Source: Gammaproteobacteria bacterium
GTDB lineage: Bacteria; Pseudomonadota; Gammaproteobacteria; GCA-001735895
DNA: 64,000 bases
Assembly (NCBI GenBank): GCA_050298595.1
Contig: JBNKUM010000014.1
Location: forward strand, 1 to 64,000
Reading direction: 5' to 3'
Shown: positions 3,785 to 60,465 of the stretch, in pieces
How the letters are laid out: every line of letters starts with the position of its first letter
How positions within the stretch are numbered: position 1 is the stretch's first letter
Position numbers and translations under genes: made by a program
Notes under the pieces: model-generated
Databases searched by the model: none
Told to the model about the DNA's origin: nothing
The model's input: only the letters and a program-made list of their open reading frames with translations

Positions 3785-4866
3785 AATGAGCCCTCTTCAT
3801 CGATTCTAACCTGTTGCCCATCCTGCAAACTGTGGACACCAGCTACTGCAACCCTTTCGCCTGTTTGAAGACCGGAAAGTATGATCACATTTTCACCACT
3901 ATTATCTTTGTTTTTTAACGACACCTTGCGACGCAGCACAGAATTTGTATCAGGGTCGACTACCCAGACCGTACTGGTTTCACCTTCCTGCAATATGGCC
4001 GATTGAGGCAGTATGATCTGTGGTTCTACTTTGGTAGTTGCTGAGGCAGTCACGATGGTGCCGAGGCGGAAAGATGGCGGCGGATCAAGCAGGCTAATTT
4101 TGATCCTGTGGGTACGAGTCGTCGCATCAGACTGCGGTGCAATTTCACGAACCGTACCGGCAGCCTGTATTGAAGGTTCAAGCTGTAATGATATCTCAAA
4201 CACTGCTCCCGGTTTAATGGCAGCTATTTCATCTTCAGGCACATCTATAATGACATCGCGTAGATCGGGTCGCGCCTCAATAAACGCAGTTTCACCCGCA
4301 GAAAGTACCTGACCCACCTCCGCCGAAACAGCAGTAATCACTCCGTCAAATTCTGCACGCAGCTGAGCATAGCTAAGCTGCTCTCTGGCTTTGGCAAGAT
4401 TAGCCTTCGCTCTGGCAACGGATGCTTCGGCGCTTTCCTTGACCAGTAACGCATTTTCATATTCCGCCTGAGAGGCAGAGTCCACCTGCGACAACTCGAA
4501 TTGGCGTCGCTCACTCAGACTGGCGTTTCTTAATTCTGCTTCGGTATTTGAAAGTTCTGCCTCTGCGCTACGAACAGACAACTCAAGAACCAGAGGATCG
4601 ATCATTGCTAGCAACTGGCCTTTTTTTACAATATCGCCAATATTAGCCTCTCGTTTGATCACTCGACCTAACAGCCTGAAACCCAGTTCAGCTTCTATAC
4701 GGGGCTCAACGGTACCTGCGAACTGTACCCGGGTTTCCGCCTCAGGCATGACCAGCACTGAAAGTAGTGGCCTTACAACGTCATGCGACTCCGCCTCTTT
4801 ATCTTCACATCCCGACAAAAATACTGGAACAATCAGTGACAGAAATAAAAAATTACGCCAGCTCAT
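3781..4866 (-). CDS. RND periplasmic adaptor (membrane fusion protein), lipoprotein
   Basis: Lipobox LSGC; LGFRLLGRV, GDIVKKGQLLA, LRAEFDGVIT; overlaps RND start by 4 nt. Confidence 0.9.
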   Translation of the reverse strand: MSWRNFLFLSLIVPVFLSGCEDKEAESHDVVRPLLSVLVMPEAETRVQFAGTVEPRIEAELGFRLLGRVIKREANIGDIVKKGQLLAMIDPLVLELSVRSAEAELSNTEAELRNASLSERRQFELSQVDSASQAEYENALLVKESAEASVARAKANLAKAREQLSYAQLRAEFDGVITAVSAEVGQVLSAGETAFIEARPDLRDVIIDVPEDEIAAIKPGAVFEISLQLEPSIQAAGTVREIAPQSDATTRTHRIKISLLDPPPSFRLGTIVTASATTKVEPQIILPQSAILQEGETSTVWVVDPDTNSVLRRKVSLKNKDNSGENVIILSGLQTGERVAVAGVHSLQDGQQVRIDEEGSL

Positions 4867-5945
4867 ATTGCCTCCTTGTTAAGGATAGATACCTGCTGAC
4901 CTGTGCGTAATAATTTTCCGCCCTCGCTGACGACCAGATCGCCATCCTTTAAGCCATCGGTTACAGCAAATAAACCTGTTTCATAGTCTGAGACCTGAAC
5001 CGCTTGCAGTGAAACCTTGCTTCTATCCGGGTCGATTATCCAGACTGCAGGTTTACCATCGATTGAAGCCATTGCACTCCATGGGAGCAGCATGACCTGT
5101 TTGGACTGGTAAGAGAATCGTCCAGTGACAATGGCACCCAATGGCATGATAGAGCCCTGTTCACCTAGATCGACCTTAACCCGGATAGTACCTGTTGATG
5201 CATCTATGGTTGGAGACACTTCCCGTACTGTCGCAGTGATGGTTATGGAGGGGTCAGACAGCAGGGAAACTTCAATCCTGTCATCTGACTGATTATTCAG
5301 AAATAGCGATTCAAACACATTGAATACCGCATCACGCTTGCCCTCATGTGCCAGGGTGAATACAGTCTGTGCTGCCTGCTGAACCTGACCAACTTCAGCG
5401 TTACGTGCCGTAATAATGCCATCTGCATCAGCCCTCAGGTCAGTAAAACTCAGGGTATCTTTAGCACTGGCAAGAACCGCTCTCGCAGCATCTACTGAGC
5501 CTTCAGCCGTACGCAACGCCGCTTCGGCCTGGTCATAGTTGGCTTTTGATGTAATCTGGGTAGCTAACAGTTCCTTCTGGCGTTTCAGTGCCAATGTCGC
5601 CTGCCGAAGTTGAGCCTGTGCCGCTGCCAGACCCGCTTTGGCCACATCAACATCAGCCTGCTGCTGGGCTGGATCAATGCGTGCTAGGATATCGCCCGCT
5701 TTGACATGACTACCCACTTCAACATTGCGCTCAATGATGCGTCCAGATACGCGGAAAGAAAGCTGCGTTTCAGTTCTAGCTGTTACCGAACCAGATAACG
5801 TCGCGTTGGAGGTAAACTCAGTCGTCCTGGCTTCGACTGCGATGACCGCTTTCGGCTGAGCAGGAGGCACTATTTTTTTATCGTCGCAGGACACAAGCGA
5901 CATTGCGATGAGCAAAAAAGCAAAAAGCTTTCTTATTTCAATCAT
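4863..5945 (-). CDS. Second RND periplasmic adaptor (membrane fusion protein), lipoprotein
   Basis: Lipobox LVSC; LSFRVSGRI, GSHVKAGDILARID, LRADADGIIT. Confidence 0.9.
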   Translation of the reverse strand: MIEIRKLFAFLLIAMSLVSCDDKKIVPPAQPKAVIAVEARTTEFTSNATLSGSVTARTETQLSFRVSGRIIERNVEVGSHVKAGDILARIDPAQQQADVDVAKAGLAAAQAQLRQATLALKRQKELLATQITSKANYDQAEAALRTAEGSVDAARAVLASAKDTLSFTDLRADADGIITARNAEVGQVQQAAQTVFTLAHEGKRDAVFNVFESLFLNNQSDDRIEVSLLSDPSITITATVREVSPTIDASTGTIRVKVDLGEQGSIMPLGAIVTGRFSYQSKQVMLLPWSAMASIDGKPAVWIIDPDRSKVSLQAVQVSDYETGLFAVTDGLKDGDLVVSEGGKLLRTGQQVSILNKEAI

Positions 5946-6566: not shown

Positions 6567-6591
6567 ATCGAGGTTCAAAATGAACCTCGAT
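6567..6591 (-). terminator. Rho-independent terminator closing the scn/ABC/SQR operon
   Basis: ATCGAGGTTCA-AAA-TGAACCTCGAT followed on the minus strand by CTTTTTT. Confidence 0.75.
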
Positions 6592-6652: not shown

Positions 6653-7081
6653 CTAACCACCTCGTCTGTGTATGTCGCGTAAGCTTTCACTCAAATGCGC
6701 ACCAATCAAAGACATCATACGAAGACCTTCCTGGATTCCCGGCTCGGATATCATTTTAAGCAAACCGCCAATACCGCCTTTTGCAGGTGGTGCAATGGCT
6801 ATGTCACGACTGGTTTTTGTTAATGCAGACGATAAACCAAGCAGTAACGCCTGATTGTCAGGATGATCAAGTTCCTGCAATAGTTTAATCAATCCTTCGT
6901 TTCGAGTTACCCGATCAAGTAACACCATGCCTTCACTGAATGCAGAAGCCAGGCGTGCAACCATATCATCAGTTAAAGCGTCTTGAGTCGCAGCAACAAT
7001 CGAAGCAAATTCAGTCAATCTCTGGAGGTCAGAAGTACTGATAGTTGTTGTATCAGAGGATGAGTTATTTTGTTCAGTCAT
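6653..7081 (-). CDS. DUF1641-like helical protein accompanying SQR
   Basis: DALTDDMVARLA and GGIGGLLKMISEPGIQEGL motifs; start placed at MTEQ after a GAGGA RBS. Confidence 0.7.
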   Translation of the reverse strand: MTEQNNSSSDTTTISTSDLQRLTEFASIVAATQDALTDDMVARLASAFSEGMVLLDRVTRNEGLIKLLQELDHPDNQALLLGLSSALTKTSRDIAIAPPAKGGIGGLLKMISEPGIQEGLRMMSLIGAHLSESLRDIHRRGG

Positions 7082-7092
7082 GATCTTTTTCC

Positions 7093-8226
7093 TCAAAGTA
7101 GTCCACGTACACTGGTCCAGTACATTTTGTTATAAGACGTTTTAAACCAGTGCATAGGTTGATTGGCAGGTTTCAGATCGGGCGGATTAAGGTAGTTAAA
7201 CATAGCGTACGTCGCCTTATCATGACCCGCTTCAATGAAACAGTACACTTTGCCGTCATATTCTGTTACAGGCGTACCTATCTTTATCATAGAAGCTATA
7301 TTTTCTGAAATCACCTCTGCTTCAAAATGAGCAGCAGAACCTGTTTTACTGACGGGAAGATTTGTAGTATCACCGACTACATAAACATTATCGTATCCCT
7401 CCATAGTCAATGAATGTCTATCAGTTGGAATCCAGCCATCCTGACCCAGACCATTTCTTTCAATGACACCCATACCATGATGCTCAGGAACTGATATCAG
7501 CAGATCGTATTTGTACTCAGATCCTTCCATACTTTTGACAACCTTATTTTCCACATCCACTTCTTCGACGTTAAATAAAGTCTCATACTCTACTCCCATT
7601 TCATCAAACTGAGGCCTGGCCCAGATTGCAACATTTTCAATGCTGTGGATTCTGTTAATAGGGTAGTGGTACTTAATATTGACCTTATCCCGTATTCCTC
7701 TTGCAGTAAAATACTCATGTAAAGCGAACGTTATTTCAACCGGTGCTATCGGGCATTTATGCGGCACACCGACGACAATACCAATATTGCCACCCTCAAA
7801 TTCACGCAGCTTTTTGAACATGCTAATAGCACCTTTCTCGGTGTAGCAGGTTTCAGAGCCCTCTTCCAGTCCCGGGATTTTTTTAGGCATTATGCGTGAA
7901 CCTGTGGCGATTACGAGAACATCATAGAAGTACTCCTTACCGCTTTGGGTTCTTACTTTTTTCTTATCAAGCTCAAACTTTTCGACGGGATCAACATGAA
8001 AATCGATGCTCGTTTCTAGTAAACTAGCCTGATCACGATACAGTTCATCAGGCATCATCTGGCCAAACGCAACATATAGTAATCCTGGTTGATACATATG
8101 CTGATCCGAAGCAGATAGCATGGTTATATGTACCTTGCGTTTTTTTATTTCTTTATCCAGACGTCTGGCTAAATTATTTGCAACAATGGTTCCACCGGTG
8201 CCTCCACCAACAACCAAGATTCTCAT
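7093..8226 (-). CDS. Sulfide:quinone oxidoreductase-like flavoprotein (short, type III-like)
   Basis: GGGTGG FAD motif, HMYQPGLLY, KCPIAP and YDGKVYCFIE carrying the two redox Cys positions, VYVVGD. Confidence 0.85.
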   Translation of the reverse strand: MRILVVGGGTGGTIVANNLARRLDKEIKKRKVHITMLSASDQHMYQPGLLYVAFGQMMPDELYRDQASLLETSIDFHVDPVEKFELDKKKVRTQSGKEYFYDVLVIATGSRIMPKKIPGLEEGSETCYTEKGAISMFKKLREFEGGNIGIVVGVPHKCPIAPVEITFALHEYFTARGIRDKVNIKYHYPINRIHSIENVAIWARPQFDEMGVEYETLFNVEEVDVENKVVKSMEGSEYKYDLLISVPEHHGMGVIERNGLGQDGWIPTDRHSLTMEGYDNVYVVGDTTNLPVSKTGSAAHFEAEVISENIASMIKIGTPVTEYDGKVYCFIEAGHDKATYAMFNYLNPPDLKPANQPMHWFKTSYNKMYWTSVRGLL

Positions 8227-8300
8227 TATATTTTCCTCTAGAAACTATTAATTTATTTCTGCAGCGTAGACAGAATTTATATTGTTAACAGGACAGACTT

Positions 8301-8531
8301 TTATTTAGCCTTACGTACAGTGATATGCCATACATCACCCACCTGCTCACTACTTACCATTTCATGACCAATTTTATTTACCCATTCCGGGACATCTGTT
8401 GCTGTCCCATTGTCAGTCGACAGTAATTCAATACTGTCACCGACTTCGGCCTGTTTCATATAAGTAATCAGTTCCATCAGTGGCCCTGGGCAATAGGTAT
8501 TACATGCATCAACTATTTTGTGTTCGCTCAT
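8301..8531 (-). CDS. TusA-family sulfur carrier
   Basis: 76 aa; DACNTYCPGPL (CPxP motif), D-V-P-E-W, ends ITVRKAK. Confidence 0.9.
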   Translation of the reverse strand: MSEHKIVDACNTYCPGPLMELITYMKQAEVGDSIELLSTDNGTATDVPEWVNKIGHEMVSSEQVGDVWHITVRKAK

Positions 8532-8572
8532 ACTTTAACTCCTCGAATTTATTTAATCGTGTCTCTATCTAA

Positions 8573-8962
8573 CTAGAAAGTAAAAACCTGTGAGCCTTCG
8601 GCATCCATTAGAAATTTGGTTAACCCCGTCGCCTCACCAAATCCAGCTTCAAGGTCTTTATCAGTGATTTCCAGTAAATCTAACGCCATCGAACAAGGTA
8701 ATAACTTTGCATCACCCAACTCGGCTGCCTGTTGGAATAATTGCTTAAAAGGGGGCACTCCTTTTTTATCCAGAAGCCCCCCGAATTCCCCCTCTGCCGG
8801 GGCTACAGTTGCATTCCCTTTCACAAAATAAGTAAGTGCATTCATGGAAAAAAATACAGTGACTTCATCTCCGCTAGCTGCGCCAACCGATGCAACCATA
8901 GCCGCCATCTGTAATTTTTCATGTGTGCCGGAAAGACACACTATGTCAATTTGCCTGGGCAT
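8573..8962 (-). CDS. DsrE/DsrF/DrsH-like (DsrE2-type) sulfur-relay protein
   Basis: 129 aa; EVTVFFS, LPCSMALDL with the conserved Cys, GLTKFL. Confidence 0.85.
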   Translation of the reverse strand: MPRQIDIVCLSGTHEKLQMAAMVASVGAASGDEVTVFFSMNALTYFVKGNATVAPAEGEFGGLLDKKGVPPFKQLFQQAAELGDAKLLPCSMALDLLEITDKDLEAGFGEATGLTKFLMDAEGSQVFTF

Positions 8963-9022
8963 TATCAGTACTCCAATTTTTAGAAATAATTTTTAGAAAT
9001 AATTTTTTAACGACAAATTTCA

Positions 9023-9811
9023 TCAGTTACGGTGCCAGCAATAGTTTTTAATGATAAAGGCACAGGAACTATCAAGAATGTAACCTATGACACCAATGAC
9101 GAGCACCATGGCTGTAAGATGGTCGTAGGATAAAGTCTCTCTCGCATCTGCAATCGAATATCCTAATCCTGAAGTAACTCCAAGAAACTCAGCAGGTACT
9201 AACACGATCCATGCAACGCCCAGTGCCGCTCTTATGCCGGTCATAATATCGAATGAAATAGCAGGTAAAATAATCTCTGTCAGAGTCTGCCAGCGACTGG
9301 CTCCCAGATTTCGCGCGACCTTAAACCAGTTTGGATCCACTTTGGCCAGACCTGCGGCAGTAGAGAATGCCACCGGCCATATCGAAGCAATAGATAGAAG
9401 AAAAATGATCGCCTGATCCCAGGAAAGGAATACAATTACGGCGATAGGTTCCCATGATAACGGGCTGATCATTCGTAACAGTTGAAATGGTGAATTACTC
9501 AGTTCTTTAAAAGTTTTACTGCGTCCGAGTAAGATACCTATAGGGATACCTAGAGATATCGCTATAAACAAAGCTATGCCTAACCGATAACCACTGGATT
9601 TAACAGCATCCTGGATAGTCCCATCTGCAAACAGAGCTGGATAAGCTTTGAAGGTAGGTATGGGGCCAAAGTCAGCAAAATTTACTGTATCTGGATTTAT
9701 AGATAGTAAATATCCACCAAGCCACCAGAAACTGAACAGTATTGCCAGGCCTGCAGCCCAGTTAAACAGTGGGCGACCTAACATTTTGATGCCATCTTCA
9801 TTCTTTGCCAT
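9023..9811 (-). CDS. ABC transporter permease (nitrate/sulfonate/cyanate family)
   Basis: LGIPIGILLG, LRMISPLSW, EAA-loop ARNLGASRWQ, LVPAEFLGVTSGLGY. Confidence 0.9.
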   Translation of the reverse strand: MAKNEDGIKMLGRPLFNWAAGLAILFSFWWLGGYLLSINPDTVNFADFGPIPTFKAYPALFADGTIQDAVKSSGYRLGIALFIAISLGIPIGILLGRSKTFKELSNSPFQLLRMISPLSWEPIAVIVFLSWDQAIIFLLSIASIWPVAFSTAAGLAKVDPNWFKVARNLGASRWQTLTEIILPAISFDIMTGIRAALGVAWIVLVPAEFLGVTSGLGYSIADARETLSYDHLTAMVLVIGVIGYILDSSCAFIIKNYCWHRN

Positions 9812-9825
9812 AATTCAATTACTCT

Positions 9826-11115
9826 CTAAATTTTGAAAATCTCTTCTCTGGTGTAGGGATCACCAGATTGAGGAACACTCGAGTCATTTTTCCATTTAGG
9901 ATTAGCTTCCAGTGCTTTTTTCACAAAGTCATAGTTCACCAGATCCTTTGCGATAAATTTTGGATCTAGTCTGGCGACATAATCAACGTCTCCTGTGAGC
10001 ACTGAATCCTGTAAATACTTGATATTTAACTCGGTGGCTGAGGGGTATGGCCAGGCCTGGAAGTTAATACGATCCTGTCCCCATTCTGTATGCTGAATGG
10101 CATGTGGATTCTTATAGTAAGCGGGGTCATAATTCATCATTGCCCGCTTGACGACTTGCTTGGGGAATGGGTAATATTTTTTTCCATCTCTGGATAGAAC
10201 CTGAGACATCTCTTCTCGATTTTCACTTAAATAAATCTGAGCTTCTATTATTGCGTTATGCACACCTTGCGCCCAGGCTGCGCGATCAGGATCCATAGTA
10301 TCTGCTTCATGCATAACGACCACACAGCAAGGATGTCCTTTCCAGATATCGCCGGTAAATCTAAGAACCTTTCCTCCTGCCTTCAATTCTCCCAGTGCAG
10401 CAAAAGGTTCTGCAACACAATAGGCATCTATAGACTTTGCAGCCAGTGCTGGCGGCATTGAAGGTGGCTCTAATACAATGATGTTGCATTCGTTTGGTGC
10501 AAGCTTTGCGTCCTGTGGCCTTATGACGGGAGTAATTCCTGCAGCTCTCATCATTTTTTGCGAAATGATATTATGGTTCGAATACCAGTAAGGTACTGCG
10601 TATTGTTTCCCACCCAGATCCGCCGCAGTATTTATTCCAGTGTCTTTACCTACCACTATAGCTGAACCATTGGTATGATCCCATGCGGTAATTTTCACCG
10701 GGAAATTTGAGTTGTAACGCATTGCTACCGGAATAGGAGCCAGTAAATGAGTCAAATTAAAACGATGAGATGAAAATGCTTCTACCAGTGGCGACCAGCC
10801 TCGAATCAATGTAGGTGGAGCAGAGTCAATTCCCTGCTTCTTGAAAAAACCTTTTTCATGCGCAGTTAACAGTGCCGCTGCATCTGTGATTGGAATATAA
10901 CCCATACGAACTACAGGGTCCCATTTCTTCTCACTTGCATAACTTGGAAGTGGTAAGGCGCTGCTTAATGCCGCTGCGGCCCCAAATTTTAGAAGGTCTC
11001 GGCGAGTTATGCCTGAGCCTAGTACATCCTTAAATAATGGATCGTAATCCACTACCAGATCTGAATCCTGTATTCCATCACCATGCAACTTGTAAATTTT
11101 TTTCATATCAGTCAT
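9826..11115 (-). CDS. ABC substrate-binding protein (NrtA/CmpA/CynA-like) with Tat signal
   Basis: TRRDLLK twin-arginine motif; VRMGYIPITDA, HTNGSAI, VAEPF, WKGHPCCVV. Confidence 0.88.
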   Translation of the reverse strand: MTDMKKIYKLHGDGIQDSDLVVDYDPLFKDVLGSGITRRDLLKFGAAAALSSALPLPSYASEKKWDPVVRMGYIPITDAAALLTAHEKGFFKKQGIDSAPPTLIRGWSPLVEAFSSHRFNLTHLLAPIPVAMRYNSNFPVKITAWDHTNGSAIVVGKDTGINTAADLGGKQYAVPYWYSNHNIISQKMMRAAGITPVIRPQDAKLAPNECNIIVLEPPSMPPALAAKSIDAYCVAEPFAALGELKAGGKVLRFTGDIWKGHPCCVVVMHEADTMDPDRAAWAQGVHNAIIEAQIYLSENREEMSQVLSRDGKKYYPFPKQVVKRAMMNYDPAYYKNPHAIQHTEWGQDRINFQAWPYPSATELNIKYLQDSVLTGDVDYVARLDPKFIAKDLVNYDFVKKALEANPKWKNDSSVPQSGDPYTREEIFKI

Positions 11116-11226
11116 TTCGTCTTCCTCAATCGTTTACCATTAGGTGAATAGTTGTGACACGCTGCTAACCTTTACTTAACTATTGCTGTACTTATCTGTA
11201 TACTTAATTTTTATTGCTGGTCAGGA

Positions 11227-12000
11227 TTAGTTACTCGAGACCATATTTGAAGCCTCGTGAAAAACATGTAATAGATTTTCACGCATTTCCTGAGCCAGTG
11301 GATCATTGCGATCTCTCGGGTCATCAAGGTCAATCGGTATGTCGTGCAATATCTTGCCTGGCGATCCAGCCATTATTAATGCGCGATCCGCCATGCAAAC
11401 CGCTTCGTCAATATCGTGAGTAACCATCAGGAGGTTGATACCGAGTTTTTTTGCTATTGCACGCACATCACGCTGTAACGCTGTGCGGGTGAAGGCATCT
11501 AATGCTGAAAAAGGTTCATCCAGTAAAAGAAGCTCTGGCTCCATAACCAGCGATCGAGCAAGCGCAACTCGCTGTTGCTGCCCACCTGACAGATCCTGTG
11601 TATTTTTCCGGGCATACTCGTCCAGCTCAACCAGACTTATCGCTTCAGCTACCTTGGCTTCGATTTTATCCTTTGGCCAGTTAGAAAATCGCAGCCCTAA
11701 ACCGACGTTGGATTCGACGGTTAACCAGGGAAAAAGATGAGGAGCCTGAAACATCATAACCCAGCGCGGAGATGGTCCTGCTACCTCTATATCATCCAAT
11801 TTTAAACTACCGCTCGATTTATCGAGCAAGCCGGCAATTATATGAAGAAGGGTTGATTTTCCACAGCCTGATCGCCCAATTATAATTAGAGCCTCGCCCT
11901 GCTCGGCCTCTATGTTCACACCATCGAAGGTCAATGGACTCTTCTCGGTATAGCGATGAGTCAGGTTTTCGACCTTCATTTGAACACCACGGATTGACAT
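11227..12000 (-). CDS. ABC transporter ATP-binding subunit
   Basis: GRSGCGKST, LSGGQQQR, LLLDEPFSALD, VTHDIDEA. Confidence 0.95.
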   Translation of the reverse strand: MSIRGVQMKVENLTHRYTEKSPLTFDGVNIEAEQGEALIIIGRSGCGKSTLLHIIAGLLDKSSGSLKLDDIEVAGPSPRWVMMFQAPHLFPWLTVESNVGLGLRFSNWPKDKIEAKVAEAISLVELDEYARKNTQDLSGGQQQRVALARSLVMEPELLLLDEPFSALDAFTRTALQRDVRAIAKKLGINLLMVTHDIDEAVCMADRALIMAGSPGKILHDIPIDLDDPRDRNDPLAQEMRENLLHVFHEASNMVSSN

Positions 12001-12037
12001 TATTCAACTCCTCTTTTTATAGATTTTTGTTTTGCTA

Positions 12038-12067
12038 AGCGCGTTAGTTTTATATAACTAACGCGCT
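12038..12067. other. Intra-operon 12-bp hairpin
   Basis: AGCGCGTTAGTT-TTATAT-AACTAACGCGCT; no U-tract follows on the minus (sense) strand. Confidence 0.6.
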
Positions 12068-12110
12068 GTAGACTGCTTTCTTTTTACTCCGTTAAATCCT
12101 TTTAAGTCGT

Positions 12111-12581
12111 TTAATCGTCTAATCCGTCAGCCATGTGTAAACGTTCATCCACCCGCTTCATATGCCGTTCGAGTTCCTCCTCACTAATCATGCCGCGGCG
12201 GATCAATGTATGTGCCAGTGCCAGCAACTGCCGTTCAGGAAATGGCACATCGGCATAATGCTGATCAACCAGTTTGTCCTCTTCCCAGCGGCGTTCATTG
12301 GAATCAATCTTCTTGTCGTCAGCCATTACCGGCTTTCGTTCTTCTTCCGGTAAACAGATGTTAAAAGGTGCCCAGTATCCACCGGCAAGCCCGTCGCAGG
12401 TCGCTTCCATGCTGACTCTCCATGGTGGGTCCGGGTTATCCACGCCATACTCTTCACTTAACTCATCCCATACTCTGCCCTCTTGCTTGATTTTTTCCAG
12501 CAAAGAGATTGGGGATGAATCCCATTCTCTTGCTGACATCTGCCGGTCGAGCTCAATATAATCTGGATTAATTTCAGCCAT
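12111..12581 (-). CDS. Thiocyanate hydrolase activator/metallochaperone (P15K-like, NHase-beta-like)
   Basis: Directly downstream of scnC; ERRWEED...YADVPFPERQLLALAHTLIRRGMISEEEL parallels the ScnB segment ERRRRQN...YLGLPYYGRWLL. Confidence 0.75.
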   Translation of the reverse strand: MAEINPDYIELDRQMSAREWDSSPISLLEKIKQEGRVWDELSEEYGVDNPDPPWRVSMEATCDGLAGGYWAPFNICLPEEERKPVMADDKKIDSNERRWEEDKLVDQHYADVPFPERQLLALAHTLIRRGMISEEELERHMKRVDERLHMADGLDD

Positions 12582-12591
12582 GATGATTTTC

Positions 12592-13299
12592 CTAGTGCTT
12601 ATATGGATTAACTGCAGGACGAACAGGACGTTTGCCGTTTGCAGTCACCCCTGGCTTGGGAACAGCCACTCCTATCAGACAATCACGAGTCACAATTTCA
12701 GCCAGCTGATCTTCGGTCCAGCCCTCAGTACCTTCCGGTCTAACTGGCAAAACGATCATGCGTGATTTCTGATTCGAATCGACCACACGAATCTCAACAT
12801 CTTCAGGTAACTGTAATCCGAACTCTGCAAGGACCTGTCTGGGCCAACGCACAATACGACGACGATAATTCGGCGTGCGATACCATTCTGGGGATTGTCC
12901 GAGAATAGGTCTTGGATAGCAGGAACATAAGGTACACACAACCACGTGTTTTAATGTGGGCGTGTCTTCCATTACGCGTAAATTACAGTAATCGCTTGGG
13001 GTACCAAATTTTGTTGGCATGGAATTTACCCAGTCAATTCCAACATCAAGACTGGCTTTTACACCGTCTTCAACGCACATTTTTTTGTATTCGGGATCTA
13101 GCCAGGCTTTGGCGACCAGTCGTGCTGCAGGAGCTGGACCCAGAGTATGCATATAATCAGTCCATTGATTGTGATCTTCCTGGGTAAATAGACCTTTTTC
13201 GATAGCAAGTTCACGTACTGCAATTTCCAGTACTTCAAACTCACTGACTTCATCCACCATCGCTGCGGGGGGATGCAAATGTTCTTCTTCATGTGACAT
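12592..13299 (-). CDS. scnC: Thiocyanate hydrolase gamma subunit (Co-binding)
   Basis: VCTLCSCYPRPILGQSPEWYR cobalt-type motif and RWPRQVLAEFGLQLP, as recalled for Thiobacillus SCNase gamma; start at MSHEEE after GAGGA. Confidence 0.93.
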   Translation of the reverse strand: MSHEEEHLHPPAAMVDEVSEFEVLEIAVRELAIEKGLFTQEDHNQWTDYMHTLGPAPAARLVAKAWLDPEYKKMCVEDGVKASLDVGIDWVNSMPTKFGTPSDYCNLRVMEDTPTLKHVVVCTLCSCYPRPILGQSPEWYRTPNYRRRIVRWPRQVLAEFGLQLPEDVEIRVVDSNQKSRMIVLPVRPEGTEGWTEDQLAEIVTRDCLIGVAVPKPGVTANGKRPVRPAVNPYKH

Positions 13300-13353
13300 G
13301 CTTGTGTTCCTCTTATAACTGATTGGTATGCAGATATTCACCCCATTAAGGGG

Positions 13354-13722
13354 TCAGACCGCCTCTAAATAATGTTCTGGAATCTCGGTTTCTACCGTGT
13401 CTTTGGCAAATGTGCCAGAATAGTCAGGCCAGAGATCTGTCATTGAAACCACCAGACTATAAAACCACTCGACATTTTCCGTGTTATCCCATGATTCATC
13501 TTCAGCAGGAGGGCTTTCGTAGACCAATCGGGTTATGGTTGCCGTTGAACCTCTTAAATAGCCTTGAGTTCGGGTGTAAAACAGATCGGGCAGATCTCTG
13601 ATTCGAACCTTGTCCCCAACCTTGAACCTGGCGGGAGGCGCCTCACCTCTAAAGCATTGCGGATCACCAATACCAGTCGCTTTCTTGACATGATGCTCTC
13701 TATCATAATGTGGCTTACTCAT
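13354..13722 (-). CDS. scnA: Thiocyanate hydrolase alpha subunit
   Basis: 122 aa; GIGDPQCFRG, RFKVGDKVRIRDLPDLFYTRTQGYLRG, ETEIPEHYLE (SH3-like C-terminal half of NHase beta). Confidence 0.9.
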   Translation of the reverse strand: MSKPHYDREHHVKKATGIGDPQCFRGEAPPARFKVGDKVRIRDLPDLFYTRTQGYLRGSTATITRLVYESPPAEDESWDNTENVEWFYSLVVSMTDLWPDYSGTFAKDTVETEIPEHYLEAV

Positions 13723-14146
13723 AACGTTTTCTCACCTCTGCAACTTTTTCCTGTAATTCAGTAGCGGTGACATATTGCTTATCCACCAGAATCTTTGCTG
13801 CTGTCAGTAGCCAGCGACCGTAATATGGTAATCCGAGGTATGTCGTATGCCCTACCTCAACATTTTGCCGACGACGCCTTTCTTCGGCGTTCCACACGCC
13901 TCGCCAGGCGAGTACTTCGCAGGTTACAAAGGTATTGTGCTCCCAAACTTCTTCTTCTTTTTCTTCCCAGGTAATCGGGATATCAGGCTCTCCCCCGACA
14001 TCATGCGGTGATCGCGTATAAGCTCGGAAATGGGCGTTATCAATCTCATCGGGAGCGGGTGCATGTGTGGCTCTATGCAAAGCCGGTTGCATTTGTCCGA
14101 GAATATTGATATGTCGTAGTACTTTATCTCTTGTTGACACTGACAT
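13715..14146 (-). CDS. scnB: Thiocyanate hydrolase beta subunit
   Basis: PHDVGGEPD, WEHNTFVTCEVLAWRGVWNAEERRRRQN, YLGLPYYGRW (N-terminal half of NHase beta); order scnB-scnA-scnC. Confidence 0.9.
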   Translation of the reverse strand: MSVSTRDKVLRHINILGQMQPALHRATHAPAPDEIDNAHFRAYTRSPHDVGGEPDIPITWEEKEEEVWEHNTFVTCEVLAWRGVWNAEERRRRQNVEVGHTTYLGLPYYGRWLLTAAKILVDKQYVTATELQEKVAEVRKRYE

Positions 14147-14288
14147 AATTTGGACTCCTAACTTTTTTTAATATTGATTGCTATGGAACAATCGTCTTAA
14201 GACGGGCTAGAGATCATACTTTTAATAAGAAATACTTATAAGCTCATCAGCTAACCTGCGAACAAGTCTAATTTTAGGGGGGTGATTC

Positions 14289-14332
14289 AATCCAATACTT
14301 TGTTATTATCATGCCTATAGGCATTACCTATA
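14289..14332 (-). promoter_or_regulatory. LysR(CynR)-type operator copy 1, upstream of scnB
   Basis: Minus strand TATAGGTAATGCCTATAGGCATGATAATAACAAAGTATTGGATT; palindromic T-N11-A core; aligns ungapped with copies 2 and 3. Confidence 0.8.
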
Positions 14333-14543
14333 GTTGAAACAAAAACTAAAAAATTTTTGAATATCTTGTTACATTTCTGCGTCATACTAGTCAGTTAAAA
14401 CAATTTGACTCGCTTTGTTTGACTCAGAACAGAGAGAATGTGAAGGTTAGAATTTAATCGATCAAACAATCGCTTAAGTTGTATAGCTTTACACAGCCCA
14501 GGGATCTTTTTAAGCAGTAAGATAACAACCGAGGCACTACATC

Positions 14544-15566
14544 ATGAATCCGAAGCATATATTTCCACGTCCTTTACAATATTTAATTGCTGTCGCAGAA
14601 CACGGTAGTTTTACCCGAGCAGCAGAGGCTCTGTATGTCTCGCAACCCACACTTTCACAACAGATAAAACAACTGGAAGACTCACTAACCTTGCCATTGC
14701 TGGATCGGTCTGGCAAAACTGTAAGGCTCACAGATGCCGGTGAAACTTATGTCTACCATGCGCGACGTGCATGGTCAGAACTGGAAGCTGGCACCCGAGC
14801 AGTGCAGGATGTGCAAAACCTGAGTCGTGGAAGCCTGCGTATTGGTTGGACTCCTATTACCGACTTTCTGACCTGCTCTCTACTGGATCAATTCATTCGT
14901 AAATACCCCGGAATTTCTCTGACCACACTGGAAATGCCAGCTGATGAAATTGAAATGGCAGTAAGTGACGACCTGATTGATTTTGGTATCGTATTCAGTA
15001 AACCCATCTCGATCGATCAATCCAAACCTTACAATATCAAATCCTGTGTACTGTTCGAGGAAAAGCTGTGTTTAGCCATTGGAAACTCTCATGCACGAGC
15101 CGGACAGAAAGAAAGGATAAGCGCCAAACAACTGGACAGAGAAAACATGATCATGCTGAATACAGATTTTGTGCTAAGACGCAAGGTAGATTCATACTGT
15201 ACTGACAATAACATTTCTCCCAATATTGCGATGGAAACCGACTCTCTGAGCGTTATCATTGAAATGGTTCAATCCGGGGCACTCTCAACTATCCTGCCGG
15301 AAAGTATCGTTTACTCACAGTGTGGACTGTATTCGTTAATTGCAGCCCCACGCTTACCCGTTCAGGTAATTACCATAATTTGCAGAAACAAGGGATACAA
15401 GAGTCCAGCCTGTATTGCTTTTTCTGAACTGGCTATGGCCTGGTCTGAAAACCGCCTTAAACAAACCCCTCGAAAAAAACAAAGACCCTGCCCGCTCAGC
15501 GAGCCTGGAGATTCTCAGAGCAAACTCTATGAAAACCAGCCTAAGAGCCTTGAATTTAACGTTTAG
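14544..15566 (+). CDS. cynR: CynR-like LysR regulator 1
   Basis: LQYLIAVAEHGSFTRAAEALYVSQPTLSQQIKQLE...LDRSGKTVRLTDAG...LSRGSLRIG, closely resembling E. coli CynR. Confidence 0.85.
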   Translation: MNPKHIFPRPLQYLIAVAEHGSFTRAAEALYVSQPTLSQQIKQLEDSLTLPLLDRSGKTVRLTDAGETYVYHARRAWSELEAGTRAVQDVQNLSRGSLRIGWTPITDFLTCSLLDQFIRKYPGISLTTLEMPADEIEMAVSDDLIDFGIVFSKPISIDQSKPYNIKSCVLFEEKLCLAIGNSHARAGQKERISAKQLDRENMIMLNTDFVLRRKVDSYCTDNNISPNIAMETDSLSVIIEMVQSGALSTILPESIVYSQCGLYSLIAAPRLPVQVITIICRNKGYKSPACIAFSELAMAWSENRLKQTPRKKQRPCPLSEPGDSQSKLYENQPKSLEFNV

Positions 15567-15630
15567 CTCAGGAATATGCTGATTCCCTTATAGTTTTAAA
15601 GAATACAATCCTTTTGAATCGCAATTTAAC

Positions 15631-15674
15631 TATAACCTGTACTTATAGAGTTGATAACAACCATATATTGGTAA
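15631..15674 (+). promoter_or_regulatory. LysR(CynR)-type operator copy 2, upstream of the second cynR
   Basis: TATAACCTGTACTTATAGAGTTGATAACAACCATATATTGGTAA. Confidence 0.7.
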
Positions 15675-15775
15675 ATTAATCTATCCTCACATATTTTAAA
15701 CTTGCTCAATGGATAGGTCAGTGAAACGAACTGAGTGTCTGTTTAAAAATATCAATAAATTCCGGATGAGAGTAG

Positions 15776-16744
15776 ATGATTTCACGCGATATTTTTCCGC
15801 GAACATTGCAATACCTTATAGCTATTGCTGAGTATGGTAATTTCACACGTGCTGCTGAAGCACTTTGCGTCTCGCAGCCCACGCTTTCACAACAGATTAA
15901 ACAGTTAGAAGAAACGCTAAATCTCCCATTGCTTGATAGATCATCAAAACAGGTACATCTGACGGATGCAGGAAAGATATACCTTTACCATGCCAGGCGT
16001 GCATGTTCTGAGCTAGAAGCTGGTACCAGGGCAATTCAGGATGTTGAAAATCTATCTCGTGGTTCTTTACGCATTGGCTGGACTCCGATTACTGATTACA
16101 TGACCTGTACTCTGATAGAAAGGTTCCACATTGAGTATCCCGGGATAAAACTAACCACTCTTGAAATGCCAGCAGATCAGATCGCTGTAGCTATCGCTGA
16201 AGATCGTATTGATTTTGGTATTGCTTTCAATAAACCGTTATTGAAAAACTCATCCCGGTTACATGAGATACAAACTCGCACATTGTTTAGAGAAACTCTT
16301 TGCGTGGCATTGGGAAATGAGCACATCCGCGCAGGTCAACTGGAAAGAATAAGCGTTCAGGAGTTAGGTAGAGAGAATCTTATCCTGCTTAATAAAGACT
16401 TTGCGCTGCGTCGGACTATTGACCAGTATTTCAATGATAATGGCATTGTGCCCCAGATAGCAATGCAAACCGATTCTCTAAGTGTCATCATTGAGATGGT
16501 TCAACTAGGACCTCTTGTCACTATACTGCCTGAAAGTATCATCCGTACTCAATGTGGAATACATCAAATAAGGTTGATACCTGGCCTACCACTACAGGAA
16601 ATCACGGTCATTAATCGTACTACAGGATATAAAAACCCGGCCAGCACAGCTTTTGAAATACAGGCCCAGCTTTGGTCAGAATCTCGCCTTAATAACACTC
16701 CAAACAAATACCAAAGGCCCTGCCCTTATCATGAGCCGTTCTAA
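15776..16744 (+). CDS. cynR: CynR-like LysR regulator 2 (paralog)
   Basis: Colinear with regulator 1 (IFPRTLQYLIAIAE...SRGSLRIGWTPITD...QRPCP). Confidence 0.85.
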   Translation: MISRDIFPRTLQYLIAIAEYGNFTRAAEALCVSQPTLSQQIKQLEETLNLPLLDRSSKQVHLTDAGKIYLYHARRACSELEAGTRAIQDVENLSRGSLRIGWTPITDYMTCTLIERFHIEYPGIKLTTLEMPADQIAVAIAEDRIDFGIAFNKPLLKNSSRLHEIQTRTLFRETLCVALGNEHIRAGQLERISVQELGRENLILLNKDFALRRTIDQYFNDNGIVPQIAMQTDSLSVIIEMVQLGPLVTILPESIIRTQCGIHQIRLIPGLPLQEITVINRTTGYKNPASTAFEIQAQLWSESRLNNTPNKYQRPCPYHEPF

Positions 16745-16820
16745 AACATCATTCGATACGAGGATTAACAACGGCCCGTAATGACCTGCACTGGATAAAA
16801 AGCTATAACAAAGCACTCAT

Positions 16821-16864
16821 TATAGGCACTGCCTATAGGGTTGATAATCACAAAATATTGGAAT
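16821..16864 (+). promoter_or_regulatory. LysR(CynR)-type operator copy 3, upstream of glcF-like/cynS
   Basis: TATAGGCACTGCCTATAGGGTTGATAATCACAAAATATTGGAAT. Confidence 0.8.
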
Positions 16865-16965
16865 ATTGCTTATGCCACTCATACAGTGCCTGATAATTCA
16901 ATAGCATTCCGTAGCCAGTTTTTTAAACCGAGAATAAAAGCTGAGAGGTTAGATGATAAAGGTCC

Positions 16966-18270
16966 ATGCATACCGAATTTAGCGTCGAACAACTAACTAA
17001 TCCAGGTATAGCCAGATCCAATGAGATTTTGGTCAGATGCCTGCAATGCGGATATTGTCTCGACAACTGTCCAACTTATCAGGAAACCGGTCACGAATAT
17101 GATACCCCGAGAGGTCGCGTATTTCTGATTAAGGAAATGCTGGAAAGTCGAAATGCACCAACTACTGAAACGGTACATTATCTAGATCGTTGCCTTAACT
17201 GTCTAAGCTGTTTATCCAGCTGTCCCTCATTTGTGAACTATATGCATTTGATGGATTACGCACGTGATCATATCGAACAGAAATTTAAGCGTCCTCTAGG
17301 TGACCGTCTGATACGCTGGACCCTTGCTAAAATACTACCGTACCCAGAGCGCCTTAAAATTGTCGCACGCTCTGCAAAGCTGGCTAAACCCATAGCGAAT
17401 ACATTACCCAAAGCAATATCTCGGCTGATTAACTCGGTACCTGAAAAAATTTTTCCTGCAAATGAAAACGATCGACCACAGATTTTCCCGGCGCTAGGCC
17501 AACGAAAATTTCGTGTTGCACTATTAACAGGATGTGTTCAAAAAAGTCTAAATGCCAATATTAATAACGCAACGATCAGAATATTACGCAGACATGGTTG
17601 CGAAGTTGTCATTACTGAAGGTATGGGGTGTTGTGGAGCATTAACCTATCATATGGGTAAGGTGCAGGACGCACGATCCTTGGCGATAAAAAACATTAAG
17701 GCCTGGATGTCTGAAATCAATCATCATGGACTGGATGCAATCATCATTAACACCAGTGGCTGCGGCACAGTTGTTAAAGATTACGTCAACATGTTTCAGG
17801 ATCATTCTTTAGCCGAACAGGCAAAGACAATTTCAGCCATAGCTAAAGATGTCAGTGAGTGGCTACAGGAACTAAAGCTGGAATATAAAATCAATCCAGC
17901 AATGCGTGTCGCTTATCACGCATCCTGTTCGTTACAGTTTGCTCAAAGAATACGCTACCTGCCTAAAAAGCTTCTAAAAGCAGCAGGCTTTACAGTACTC
18001 GAACCAAAGGGGCAACATACCTGTTGCGGATCAGCAGGCACTTATCATCTGCTGCAACAGGAATTATCAGAAAATTTGAAAAATAAAAAAGTTCTGTCTA
18101 TTGAAAAACTCGAACCCGATGTCATCGCAGCAGGCAACATAGGCTGTATGAAACAAATCGGCTCAGCTACCAATATACCCGTAGTTCATTCAGTGGAGTT
18201 ACTTGACTGGGCTACGGGCGGTCCTAAACCTGAAGTGATTACTGATTCACCGAACTTCTGCCCCGTATAA
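16966..18270 (+). CDS. glcF: GlcF-like Fe-S protein (2x4Fe-4S plus two CCG domains)
   Basis: CLQCGYCLDNCPTY, DTPRGRVFLIK, CLNCLSCLSSCP, GCCGAL, TCCGSAGTY, GNIGCMKQI. Confidence 0.85.
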   Translation: MHTEFSVEQLTNPGIARSNEILVRCLQCGYCLDNCPTYQETGHEYDTPRGRVFLIKEMLESRNAPTTETVHYLDRCLNCLSCLSSCPSFVNYMHLMDYARDHIEQKFKRPLGDRLIRWTLAKILPYPERLKIVARSAKLAKPIANTLPKAISRLINSVPEKIFPANENDRPQIFPALGQRKFRVALLTGCVQKSLNANINNATIRILRRHGCEVVITEGMGCCGALTYHMGKVQDARSLAIKNIKAWMSEINHHGLDAIIINTSGCGTVVKDYVNMFQDHSLAEQAKTISAIAKDVSEWLQELKLEYKINPAMRVAYHASCSLQFAQRIRYLPKKLLKAAGFTVLEPKGQHTCCGSAGTYHLLQQELSENLKNKKVLSIEKLEPDVIAAGNIGCMKQIGSATNIPVVHSVELLDWATGGPKPEVITDSPNFCPV

Positions 18271-18328
18271 ATTTTTGAGTAGCTATAACAGAATTCTACA
18301 TATACCTAACCTTGACAGGAGACAAAAA

Positions 18329-18769
18329 ATGAATAAAGAACAAATGACCGATAGCATATTTGCTGCAAAAAAAGCCAAAGGATTAACCTGGGAATCTATT
18401 GGTAATAGCCTGGGACTGGGCGCAACCTGGGTAACCTCGGCCTGCTTTGGTATGAATAGCATGCCTGCTGAAAGCGCAGATGCTCTTTGTGAACTTCTGG
18501 GTCTGGATGCTGAAGTTAGTGAAGCTTTGCAGGCTTTCCCTCATAAGGCATGGGATAAAACTATTCCACAGGATCCCGTTATTTATCGTCTGTATGAGAT
18601 TGTTGGTGTATATGGAGATACTATTAAAGAAACTATTGCTGAAAAATTTGGTGATGGAATTATGAGTGCCATAGATTTCTCAATGCATATCGACAAAGAA
18701 GAGAACCCTAAAGGAGACAGAGTTGTGATCACCATGAATGGAAAATTCCTCAAGTACACCAGCTGGTAA
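18329..18769 (+). CDS. cynS: Cyanase (cyanate hydratase)
   Basis: PQDPVIYRLYE, EKFGDGIMSAIDF, GDRVVITMNGKFLKY; start at MNKEQ after AGGAG. Confidence 0.95.
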   Translation: MNKEQMTDSIFAAKKAKGLTWESIGNSLGLGATWVTSACFGMNSMPAESADALCELLGLDAEVSEALQAFPHKAWDKTIPQDPVIYRLYEIVGVYGDTIKETIAEKFGDGIMSAIDFSMHIDKEENPKGDRVVITMNGKFLKYTSW

Positions 18770-19111
18770 TTATATAACGAACAAGACCCATGTCTGTTAA
18801 CCGGCAACCCCTGTTTGATTTTTTTACAAAGGTCGCAAACAGTGACAGATTGCAGCTTCGACTCCTGTCACAGGATTCGAAGTTTCTGCTTAATTCCTGT
18901 TACTGGCATTTTAAGCTGCCAGACTCAAACAGTCATCTGGGTAAACAGCATAGAACTTTCAAGACCATGAACTGTATTAAATTCAGAAAAATCGTCTATA
19001 GCAGCCCCATACAACAGGCTATAAATTTTTTTGGGGCCAGAGTTTACATTAGTGATAATCAGCAGAATATTGATAAATCAACCTATGCCTTAGTCTGGCA
19101 GGAGAATTCAG

Positions 19112-19954
19112 ATGTCGTTAGTGCCTAAAGACCCACACCGGTTTATCAATGAACTGGATAAACCAGCCCTACAAAGCCTGATCATGAGACTTGAGAGCCG
19201 TGCCAGGGATAAGGCTTTTTCTAACCTGATTCTGAAATATGCCGCACAGCTTTCTCTGCCAGAATCCGCCCTCGCGCTAGATATAGGCTGTGGTACCGGT
19301 GCAACTACCCGCTTCCTGGCACAACGGGATAATTTTTCGGGTAAAGCTTATGCTGTAGATCAAAGTCCAGACTTTATTGAAGTCGCAAAACGCTTTGCAC
19401 AGTCGGAGAACATCGCTGATCGAATCGAATTCTCTGTTGGTGATGCACATCAACTGGAATTTTCTGACTCCATGTTTGATGTTGTCATCGCACATACTGT
19501 CATCAGCCATGTTACCGAACCCCAGACCGTGATTCAGGAAATGGCTCGTGTTGTAAAACCCGGGGGAACTCTGGTTATCTTCGATGGTGATTATTCATCC
19601 TTAACCTTTGCTTATCCGGAACAGGAACTAGGGCATAAAATGAATAAAGCATTGGCTCAGGCCACTTTTAATAACACAATAATTATGCAGGAAATACCCC
19701 GCATGCTACCTGGCTTTAACCTGGAAATCAGCAAGGCCTGGGGGGATGCCATCGTAGAGATAGGTCGTGGTAGTTATTTTAAATCCTTTATTGAAGCTTA
19801 CGCTCCTTATGTAAAGCACGCTGGGTTAATCAGTGCCAACCTGGTAGACGACTGGTTATCAAATCAGCTTGATTTTATTGACAAGGGACATTTTTTTGCT
19901 TCCTGTAACTACTATACCTATCTGTTAAAACGCAGAGAAAAATCTAATTTTTAA
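19112..19954 (+). CDS. Class I SAM-dependent methyltransferase (UbiE-like fold)
   Basis: LDIGCGTG, GDAHQLEF...FDVV, MARVVKPGG. Confidence 0.85.
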   Translation: MSLVPKDPHRFINELDKPALQSLIMRLESRARDKAFSNLILKYAAQLSLPESALALDIGCGTGATTRFLAQRDNFSGKAYAVDQSPDFIEVAKRFAQSENIADRIEFSVGDAHQLEFSDSMFDVVIAHTVISHVTEPQTVIQEMARVVKPGGTLVIFDGDYSSLTFAYPEQELGHKMNKALAQATFNNTIIMQEIPRMLPGFNLEISKAWGDAIVEIGRGSYFKSFIEAYAPYVKHAGLISANLVDDWLSNQLDFIDKGHFFASCNYYTYLLKRREKSNF

Positions 19955-36517: not shown

Positions 36518-36997
36518 TCAGGAAATCGGCTTTAAATGAATATGCCGATGCGGCAGATTCAGTTTTCCATGTTGATGCTCCTGAGCAATCGCCTCTACCG
36601 GGAAACAATTGAGTCTGCCATGTCTGACGCCTGGTTGTGAAATTACTACATCGGCAAAAGCCTGAACACGCTCCAGAGATCCATGTAAGACAATAGTCTC
36701 CAGACAGTTATCATGATCCAGATGCACATGCAAAGTGGAGACCGTTAAATCATGGTGATCATGGGATATTTGCGTCATACGTGTTGCAAGGTCACGCTGG
36801 TGGTGATCATAAATATAAGTGAGTGTGGCCGTACAGTCTCCCTTCAGGTCGCTACTTTGCCGGGCATCCAGAAGTTGTTCTCTTAACATATCTCGAATAG
36901 CCTCGGATCGATTACTGTAACCCTGATCTTTACGGAATTGCTCAAATTGTTCAGCAAGTGACTCTTCAAGTGTAATAGTGAAACGCTGCATGCTCAT
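36518..36997 (-). CDS. nikR: Nickel-responsive regulator NikR
   Basis: MQRFTITL, YSNRSEAIRD, YDHH, STLHVHLDHDNCLE, His-rich tail. Confidence 0.93.
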   Translation of the reverse strand: MSMQRFTITLEESLAEQFEQFRKDQGYSNRSEAIRDMLREQLLDARQSSDLKGDCTATLTYIYDHHQRDLATRMTQISHDHHDLTVSTLHVHLDHDNCLETIVLHGSLERVQAFADVVISQPGVRHGRLNCFPVEAIAQEHQHGKLNLPHRHIHLKPIS

Positions 36998-60337: not shown

Positions 60338-60465
60338 GTTCTTTCCAGAAGCTCCTTGAATTTTTTTCATGGTAATAGCAATTAGCATCAGTTGATTCTA
60401 ATTAGATCATTTATGAGCACGTAATCAATCACCGAATATGACCCTTGACCTCCTATTTTTAATTG

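Follow-up and report, generated by a model that had tools for sequence, protein, structure and literature searches.

A predicted thiocyanate hydrolase operon and an opposed cyanase unit behind a shared CynR-type operator in a gammaproteobacterial contig

Thiocyanate is a pollutant of mining and coking and a natural product of cyanide detoxification, and bacteria owe their ability to degrade it to the gene cluster of the carbonyl sulfide (COS) pathway. The closest described system is that of Berben et al. 2017 (PMC5328954), the accessible text of which reports the cluster from Thiobacillus thioparus DSM 505 as well as Thioalkalivibrio thiocyanodenitrificans ARhD1 and lists scnABC, a hypothetical protein, four NitT/TauT ABC subunits, a DsrE/F-like protein, tusA, sqr and another hypothetical protein; a cyanase, a methylase and one subunit of a cobalt transporter are placed upstream. 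A conserved scn operon is credited to Kantor 2015 in the accessible part of PMC5458468, and the available portion of PMC11171427 reports that a 'cyanate/thiocyanate module' is expressed in a lucinid clam symbiont. Our subject is a 64,000-nt stretch of gammaproteobacterial DNA (contig JBNKUM010000014.1, hereafter the window), in which the genes between 6653 and 19954 very probably form a pair of CynR-regulated operons that use thiocyanate by the COS pathway and are orthologous to the T. thioparus/Thioalkalivibrio thiocyanodenitrificans cluster. An earlier note on this DNA had read from it the functions of import, hydrolysis to COS and ammonia, sulfur handling and cyanate removal by cyanase, and on this the family scores, the structure matches and the conservation of gene order agree. 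The window adds an uncultured marine-type gammaproteobacterium to the known carriers.

Gene calls combined an open reading frame (ORF) listing with Pfam and NCBIfam family scans, and 53 ORFs of the window (23 + 30) were scanned with Pfam. They give a run of 11 genes on the minus strand, from 14146 down to 6653, in the order scnB-scnA-scnC-activator-ATPase-binding protein-permease-dsrE-tusA-SQR-like gene-orf147, with intergenic gaps of -8, 12, 10, 110, 111, 14, 60, 41, 74 and -4 nt. An intrinsic terminator-like hairpin on the same strand (6567-6591; 11-bp stem with 5 GC pairs, followed by a T run) lies 62 nt past the stop codon of orf147. It is the strongest such site of the region, and a strong terminator was found only after this last gene of the run; terminator-like sites overall are not enriched (14 found, 11.1 +/- 3.7 expected). 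The same-strand run and its end terminator, as proposed in the earlier note, are therefore both in place. Opposed to the run on the plus strand are two CynR-type LysR regulators, a GlcF-like gene, cynS and a methyltransferase gene, which the note had also named, together with a small gene that it had left out, orf112, between the last two.

The conservation of this arrangement was surveyed in a set of one genome per species (GTDB), in which 330 stretches encode a relative of ScnC. We compared each window gene by tblastn with the best 80 of these stretches, taken with 10-kb flanks; the 64 loci in which 8 kb or more of sequence follows scnC are informative for the downstream genes and the 51 with at least 8 kb on both flanks for both sides, and fractions with these denominators refer to them. 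ScnC homologues as such run to thousands at 80-95% identity. The surveyed carriers include metagenome-assembled genomes labelled Thiodiazotropha, Sedimenticolaceae, Arenicellales, Acidiferrobacteraceae, Thiohalophilus, Thiobacillaceae and Hyphomicrobiales. Most of the best 80 loci repeat the 11-gene order, and among their carriers are lucinid clam symbionts, sponge-associated and sediment bacteria. The closest relative locus, L001, stands at 94% for ScnC and at 57-95% for the other cluster genes. A neighbourhood survey of ScnC homologues had been suggested in the earlier note, and it finds scnC followed by the full set of eight genes on one strand in 50/64 loci, with the dsrE-tusA-sqr-orf147 set complete in 57/64. 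Among the loci informative for both sides a LysR gene is present in 48/51, the methyltransferase in 31, cynS in 28, a GlcF-like homologue in 26 and orf112 in 19; the full operon occurs together with cynS and LysR in 18/51, and with the GlcF-like and methyltransferase genes as well in 10/51. Two further neighbours recur in the relatives and are absent from the window, a PhzF-like protein (21 loci, for example L079:18395-19303) and a 493-aa porin-like outer-membrane protein (17 loci, for example L068:17393-18874).

From scnB/A/C through the final hypothetical protein, the gene order given in the accessible text of Berben et al. 2017 is the same as in the window, the two hypothetical proteins there corresponding to the P15K-like activator and the DUF1641-like orf147 here, and the same layout is shown by a Thiobacillaceae locus of our survey (L069). 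A cyanase and a methyltransferase gene are adjacent in both clusters. The architecture was already described in 2017, and the window adds one more case of a known system; the idea that the full gene combination might be undescribed fails on that order in PMC5328954, so far as its accessible text goes, and on its recurrence in the 50 loci counted above. However, the window differs from the published cluster, as that text presents it, in several respects. Its cynS and methyltransferase genes belong to a separate glcF-cynS-orf112-methyltransferase unit that runs on the opposite strand, it has two tandem CynR paralogues and a single permease gene where the published cluster has two, and a cobalt transporter is missing from the cluster and its vicinity. 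The tandem regulators, the opposed unit holding cynS with glcF, orf112 and the methyltransferase, and the missing cobalt transporter are the peculiarities of this locus. The accessible text of PMC5328954 makes no mention of LysR, CynR, an operator, glycolate, Fe-S or a GlcF-like gene, and a literature search joining CynR, thiocyanate and LysR returned no paper on scn regulation. Because both are silent, the regulator-operator pair, the GlcF-like gene and orf112 are apparently unpublished within the literature searched, and the same apparently holds for the lack, in the window, of the cobalt transporter found in the operons of relatives.

The genes scnB (13715-14146; PF21006 NHase_beta_N, 69.9 bits) and scnA (13354-13722; PF02211 NHase_beta_C, 68.7 bits) overlap by 8 nt and encode the predicted beta and alpha subunits of thiocyanate hydrolase, which correspond to the N-terminal and C-terminal halves of a nitrile hydratase beta chain; the chain is split across two ORFs, as in the T. 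thioparus enzyme. The catalytic, cobalt-binding gamma subunit would be the product of scnC (12592-13341), which reaches 384 bits on the thiocyanate hydrolase gamma equivalog TIGR03887, above its cut-off of 291. The N-termini of its homologues in the alignment indicate that the true start is probably an internal ATG at 13293. Compared with the solved thiocyanate hydrolase of T. thioparus THI115 (2dd4, 2dd5, 3vyg), the three subunits align near full length, with 443 bits for ScnC to 2dd4_C, 222.9 bits for ScnB to 2dd4_B (residues 1-141) and 191 bits for ScnA to 2dd4_A, and the sequence differences are mostly at the subunit termini. The metal site VCTLCSCYPRP is invariant in 12/12 aligned ScnC sequences; its Cys-Thr-Leu-Cys-Ser-Cys core, which we take to be a cobalt-type site, has the Cys-X-Leu-Cys-Ser-Cys form shared with the THI115 enzyme. 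By sequence, then, the enzyme is a thiocyanate hydrolase (ScnABC, EC 3.5.5.8), not a nitrile hydratase. Directly 3' of scnC lies the gene of a 156-aa putative activator or metallochaperone (12111-12581; a weak NHase_beta_N match, 21.7 bits against a threshold of 21.5), a homologue of which occupies this position in 60/64 loci. We presume a likeness of this product to P15K, a name that we take from reference-list entries to Kataoka 2006.

A shared operator is a further line of evidence. The two LysR regulators (LysR 1, 14544-15566; LysR 2, 15776-16744; both on the plus strand) are 65% identical and both pass the CynR equivalog cut-off of 277, with 333.5 and 329.7 bits on NF008416. A tandem pair in this layout is otherwise seen only in L001 among the best 80 loci, and a divergent LysR gene within 800 nt of scnB is found in 50/73 loci. 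The operator, TATAR-N8-TATAG, is the palindrome CTATAGG-N5-CCTATAG with a LysR-type T-N11-A box and occurs at exactly three places in the 64 kb, all of them in promoter regions. Site 1 (14306-14334, minus strand; core 14315-14333) is in the divergent region between scnB and lysR1 and carries an ATGATAA extension toward scnB; site 2 (15629-15657, plus strand; core 15630-15648) and site 3 (16819-16847, plus strand; core 16821-16838) each end 119 nt before a start codon, that of lysR2 and that of the GlcF-like gene. At each site a (G)TTGATAA-like extension stands on the side of the gene that follows. Since two of the sites are perfect palindromes and count on both strands, the three places yield 5 matches, compared with 0.33 expected, and 0/100 shuffles reached 5; with the palindrome and the extension common to all three, the single operator family proposed in the earlier note is well founded. 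A sigma-70-like promoter (TTATCA-17-TATAGT or TATAAT) facing away from the regulated gene can be read in each site as well; a palindrome rich in A/T might give this by chance, or it may be a divergent promoter for autoregulation.

The operator extends to the relatives. In 52/77 loci the pattern ATAG-N7-CTAT is found no more than 450 nt upstream of scnB, and its density there is 1.84/kb compared with 0.06/kb in the rest of the loci. It has 149 sites across the loci, all of them outside labelled genes; 90 have a labelled gene start at most 400 nt downstream, and in 88 of these the gene is scnB, LysR, glcF or cynS. Several of the remaining sites, judged by position and uncounted, precede the CbiM cobalt-uptake gene in Thiodiazotropha loci. 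Among the closest known systems is cynR-cynTSX of E. coli, which shares with the window a CynR-type LysR regulator, a cyanase and transcription of the regulator divergently from its target operon. In contrast to it, the window has neither the carbonic anhydrase gene cynT nor cynX, it has two paralogous regulators, its main divergent target is the thiocyanate operon, and its effector is probably thiocyanate. One or both of the CynR paralogues probably respond to thiocyanate and/or cyanate, and for thiocyanate this is read from the target operon only. The conserved operator could serve as a part for a thiocyanate biosensor.

Put together, these predictions suggest the following route. Thiocyanate would be captured in the periplasm by a Tat-exported binding protein of the NrtA/CmpA type and imported by the ABC transporter, and the cobalt enzyme ScnBAC, matured by the P15K-like protein and identified by homology, would convert it to COS and ammonia. 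COS would then be hydrolysed to sulfide and carbon dioxide by a carbonic-anhydrase-type enzyme encoded outside the window. The SQR-like flavoprotein of the cytoplasm may oxidise the sulfide, probably in partnership with the DUF1641-like protein whose gene is translationally coupled to its own, and the sulfane sulfur may pass from it to DsrE and TusA and on into the sulfur-oxidation pathway of the cell, while cyanate would be removed or used by the cyanase. One or both CynR paralogues would bind the shared operator, found here upstream of scnB, lysR2 and the glcF-cynS-orf112-methyltransferase unit, in response to the predicted effector.

Several observations weigh against this reading. The SQR-like protein scores 322 bits against a cut-off of 525 on NF049943, a model of the selenoprotein subtype of type III, and all four sulfur genes are absent in 6/64 loci. 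A COS hydrolase is absent from the window and from 79/80 related loci, thus one step of the pathway is unaccounted for locally. The ATPase gene has gaps of about 110 nt (110 and 111 nt) on either side, so the run may contain internal promoters. The named solved relatives of the binding protein bind nitrate or bicarbonate. Lastly, the operon is without the cobalt transporter that many relatives hold between permease and dsrE.

The DsrE-family sulfur carrier or transferase (8573-8962; PF13686, PF02635) retains its cysteine in LLPCSMAL and the TusA-family carrier (8301-8531; PF01206, 67.5 bits) its Cys-Pro-Gly-Pro motif, and their genes are present in 57/64 and 58/64 loci. The SQR-like flavoprotein (7093-8226; 377 aa), a predicted sulfide-oxidising disulfide oxidoreductase of a type II/III-like kind, matches NF049943 as its only NCBIfam SQR model. 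Human SQOR is its best solved match (127 bits); the two redox cysteines align there, and as C158 and C329 they are invariant in 32/32 sequences. With human SQOR and archaeal type III SQR it shares the FAD fold and the cysteine pair; it differs from the type II/III enzymes in being shorter, in staying under the NCBIfam type III cut-off and in being always paired with a DUF1641-like gene, DsrE and TusA. It would be without a signal peptide, because the consensus N-terminus opens directly with the FAD-binding glycine motif. The last gene, orf147 (6653-7096; 147 aa), overlaps the SQR-like gene by 4 nt, is present together with it in 58/64 loci and encodes a helical protein, probably a divergent member of the DUF1641 family and a probable partner subunit of the SQR-like protein. 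The DUF1641 label given to it in the earlier note holds in part. The window protein itself is under the Pfam threshold (PF07849, 14.2 bits against 21, E 0.041), but 6/28 of its homologues match DUF1641 (best E 4e-8), its top Atlas clusters score 0.97 and its Atlas neighbours are 28-36% DUF1641. Its structure model is all-helical and poor (pLDDT 67.5, pTM 0.30), and there is no conserved cysteine among its homologues.

The alternative that survives best, and which we regard as a possibility of some weight though not the favored one, is that the cluster is mainly for obtaining nitrogen from thiocyanate and cyanate and that DsrE, TusA, the SQR-like protein and DUF1641 detoxify cytoplasmic sulfide with no harvest of energy. 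The regulators belong to the CynR, or cyanate, type, one and the same operator brings cyanase under joint regulation, and marine symbionts and sediment bacteria commonly carry the cluster. Additionally, the loci that wholly lack the sulfur genes (L023, L034, L036, L041, L050 and L051 of the 64) imply that the sulfur module is dispensable for thiocyanate hydrolysis. However, the organism carries SoxB (37963-39747, plus strand; TIGR04486, 858 bits against 550), which marks it, by this family score, as a Sox-type sulfur oxidiser, and TusA and DsrE typically belong to dissimilatory sulfur oxidation and not to detoxification. The expression report treats the module as a source of ammonium in its available portion (PMC11171427), whereas the cultured species with the same cluster use thiocyanate as an electron donor for growth, according to the accessible text of PMC5328954. 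The roles in nitrogen and energy supply are also not mutually exclusive. A short cluster form without dsrE-tusA-sqr-orf147 has a different, 120-aa DsrE-family ORF between activator and ATPase (for example L023:11229-11591), and this ORF was seen in L023, L025, L028, L029, L034, L036, L041, L050 and L051.

Less well placed is the possibility that the ABC transporter takes up cyanate, nitrate or bicarbonate, the last of these to feed cyanase, instead of thiocyanate, which we consider improbable. The transporter consists of a NitT/TauT-type ATPase (11227-12000; PF00005, 116 bits), a periplasmic anion-binding protein of the NMT1/SsuA/NrtA/CmpA type (9826-11115; PF13379, 127 bits) with a twin-arginine signal (TRRDLLKFGAAAA motif) and a permease (9023-9811; PF00528, 82 bits). 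The NCBIfam models of nitrate and taurine type match both the ATPase, at 1e-57 to 1e-58, and the permease, and the binding protein has as its best solved relatives the unnamed ABC substrate-binding protein 3un6 (60 bits) and, among named ones, the anion-binding domains of NrtA, NrtC and CmpC (57-59 bits). However, no family model reaches its cut-off, and therefore the substrate would not be one of the named ones. The three ABC genes are within the scn operon, right after the activator, in 58/64 loci, whereas cynS is on the opposite strand here and absent from 23/51 loci. The binding protein is a probable thiocyanate receptor.

Many relatives, L001 included, have a permease-dsrE interval of 1.3-1.5 kb with the cobalt transporters CbtA/CbtB or NicO, and Thiodiazotropha loci have CbiM upstream; the window interval is only 60 nt (8963-9022) and holds no cobalt transporter, and tblastn with CbtA, CbtB, NicO and CbiM queries from the relatives found no homologue anywhere in the window. 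In L001 a cbtB-cbtA-cbtB set (14334-15670 of that locus) stands where the window has its 60 nt. At the 8963-9022 junction an A/T-rich unit of 13 nt is repeated in tandem, which may be the scar of a deletion. As a metal transporter the window offers only one candidate, a HupE/UreJ protein of the nickel/cobalt type (37209-37787, plus strand), 23 kb away, which is accompanied by NikR (36518-36997, minus strand), both adjoining SoxB. In Thiodiazotropha and Sedimenticolaceae loci (L008-L021, L024, L030; a cluster of 13 loci) a conserved HTH_Tnp_1-type (IS3 orfA-like) ORF, about 100 aa long, is found inside the operon, between the second permease and dsrE (for example L016:15336-15638), and it resembles a fixed transposase remnant or a domesticated regulator.

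For the COS step the earlier note had offered two options, an enzyme encoded elsewhere or one of the unassigned genes of the cluster, after observing that there is no COS hydrolase of the beta-carbonic anhydrase type in the window. The observation is sound: no carbonic anhydrase was found among the 53 ORFs scanned with Pfam, and no beta-carbonic anhydrase, the family whose clade D includes COS hydrolase, was found in the window either by a six-frame motif search or by tblastn with the beta-carbonic-anhydrase-like ORF of locus L071. No carbonic anhydrase was found among the neighbour clusters common to at least 4 of the best 80 loci, and the L071 ORF (1811-2446 of that locus, minus strand; CCDSR...HTHCGG) is the only one of its kind in 1648 ORFs. 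It is also the only one within 10 kb of scn in those 80 loci, and is a candidate linked COS hydrolase there. A COS hydrolase is therefore almost never linked to the scn cluster, a rarity that could be taken as a sign that the step is carried out without any hydrolase of the carbonic anhydrase type, by an unassigned gene of the cluster itself (the SQR-like/DUF1641 pair with DsrE and TusA, the GlcF-like protein, or orf112). We consider this very unlikely, because orf112 has no conserved cysteine, histidine, aspartate or glutamate and orf147 no conserved cysteine, neither of them has conserved residues of a metal-binding or nucleophilic kind, and the SQR-like protein retains the cysteine pair of a sulfide oxidiser. 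Ordinary carbonic anhydrases hydrolyse COS, too. In T. thioparus, moreover, the COS hydrolase is unlinked to scn, as stated in the accessible part of PMC6382920. Of the two options, the enzyme encoded elsewhere is the likelier. Finally, a cobalt nitrile hydratase whose substrates are organic nitriles can hardly be the right reading of the enzyme, since, although all three subunits match Pfam nitrile hydratase domains and the cobalt-type Cys-Ser-Cys motif of the gamma subunit is common to nitrile hydratases, ScnC falls under the nitrile hydratase alpha equivalog cut-off (208.9 bits against 249.85) while passing that of thiocyanate hydrolase, it reaches no more than 186 bits to any solved nitrile hydratase alpha chain compared with 443 to the thiocyanate hydrolase, the beta chain is in two genes as in T. 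thioparus, and the sulfur-handling genes of the operon would make no sense for nitriles; an enzyme acting on nitriles, the refutation that the earlier note had envisaged, is on these grounds very unlikely.

We tentatively suggest, with more doubt than confidence, that the cluster has three undescribed elements with conservation across Alpha-, Beta- and Gammaproteobacteria, namely a branch of CynR with its operator, a dedicated sulfide-capture machine and three accessory genes to which no role is assigned. If this is true, there would be a thiocyanate-sensing branch of CynR with its own operator, ATAG-N7-CTAT plus an A/T-rich extension, which would join thiocyanate hydrolysis, cyanase and, in Thiodiazotropha, apparently cobalt uptake. 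A cytoplasmic SQR-like/DUF1641 pair would pass sulfane sulfur straight to DsrE and TusA rather than to quinone-linked polysulfide. This cytoplasmic sulfide route, from the pair to DsrE and TusA, is testable and is the mechanistic yield of the locus. The cyanate/thiocyanate regulon would also gain the GlcF-like Fe-S protein, orf112 and the methyltransferase as accessory genes.

These accessory genes lie with cynS in one unit on the plus strand. The GlcF-like gene (16966-18270; NF008434, 398 bits against 333; PF02754 and Fer4 models) is the first of the unit, behind operator site 3, and its product has two 4Fe-4S motifs and two CCG domains. It appears to be an orphan, with no FAD-oxidase ORF among the 53 scanned in the window that could be its GlcD/GlcE partner. 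It is followed by the cyanase gene cynS (18275-18769; TIGR00673, 162.8 bits against 113.3; PF02560, PF21291) and by orf112 (18790-19128; 112 aa), a small conserved protein with no Pfam or NCBIfam match, 18 homologues of which occur within the best 80 loci, next to cynS or LysR. Its structure model is confident (pLDDT 89.3), Foldseek returned 0 matches among solved structures at E <= 0.001, and its Atlas matches are clusters of hypothetical proteins only. Almost all of its invariant residues are aromatic or hydrophobic. The unit ends with a class I S-adenosylmethionine-dependent methyltransferase (19112-19954; PF13847, PF08241), the substrate of which is not inferable because its solved relatives are only generic methyltransferases.

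The wider window offers some minor observations. The idea of a mobile island is not supported, as the window has no tRNA genes and there is no integrase or transposase among the scanned ORFs; Rfam riboswitches or other RNA families also had no match in the window. The GC content is 41-47% in the cluster and 43-52% in the flanks. A region of RHS repeats (59405-63999, minus strand) that ends in a HYD1-type ADP-ribosyltransferase toxin domain (Pfam) resembles a polymorphic toxin locus without a tie to the thiocyanate cluster. Directly past the operon terminator, at 716-5945 on the minus strand, are an AcrB-type RND pump and two tandem paralogous genes of membrane-fusion adaptors.

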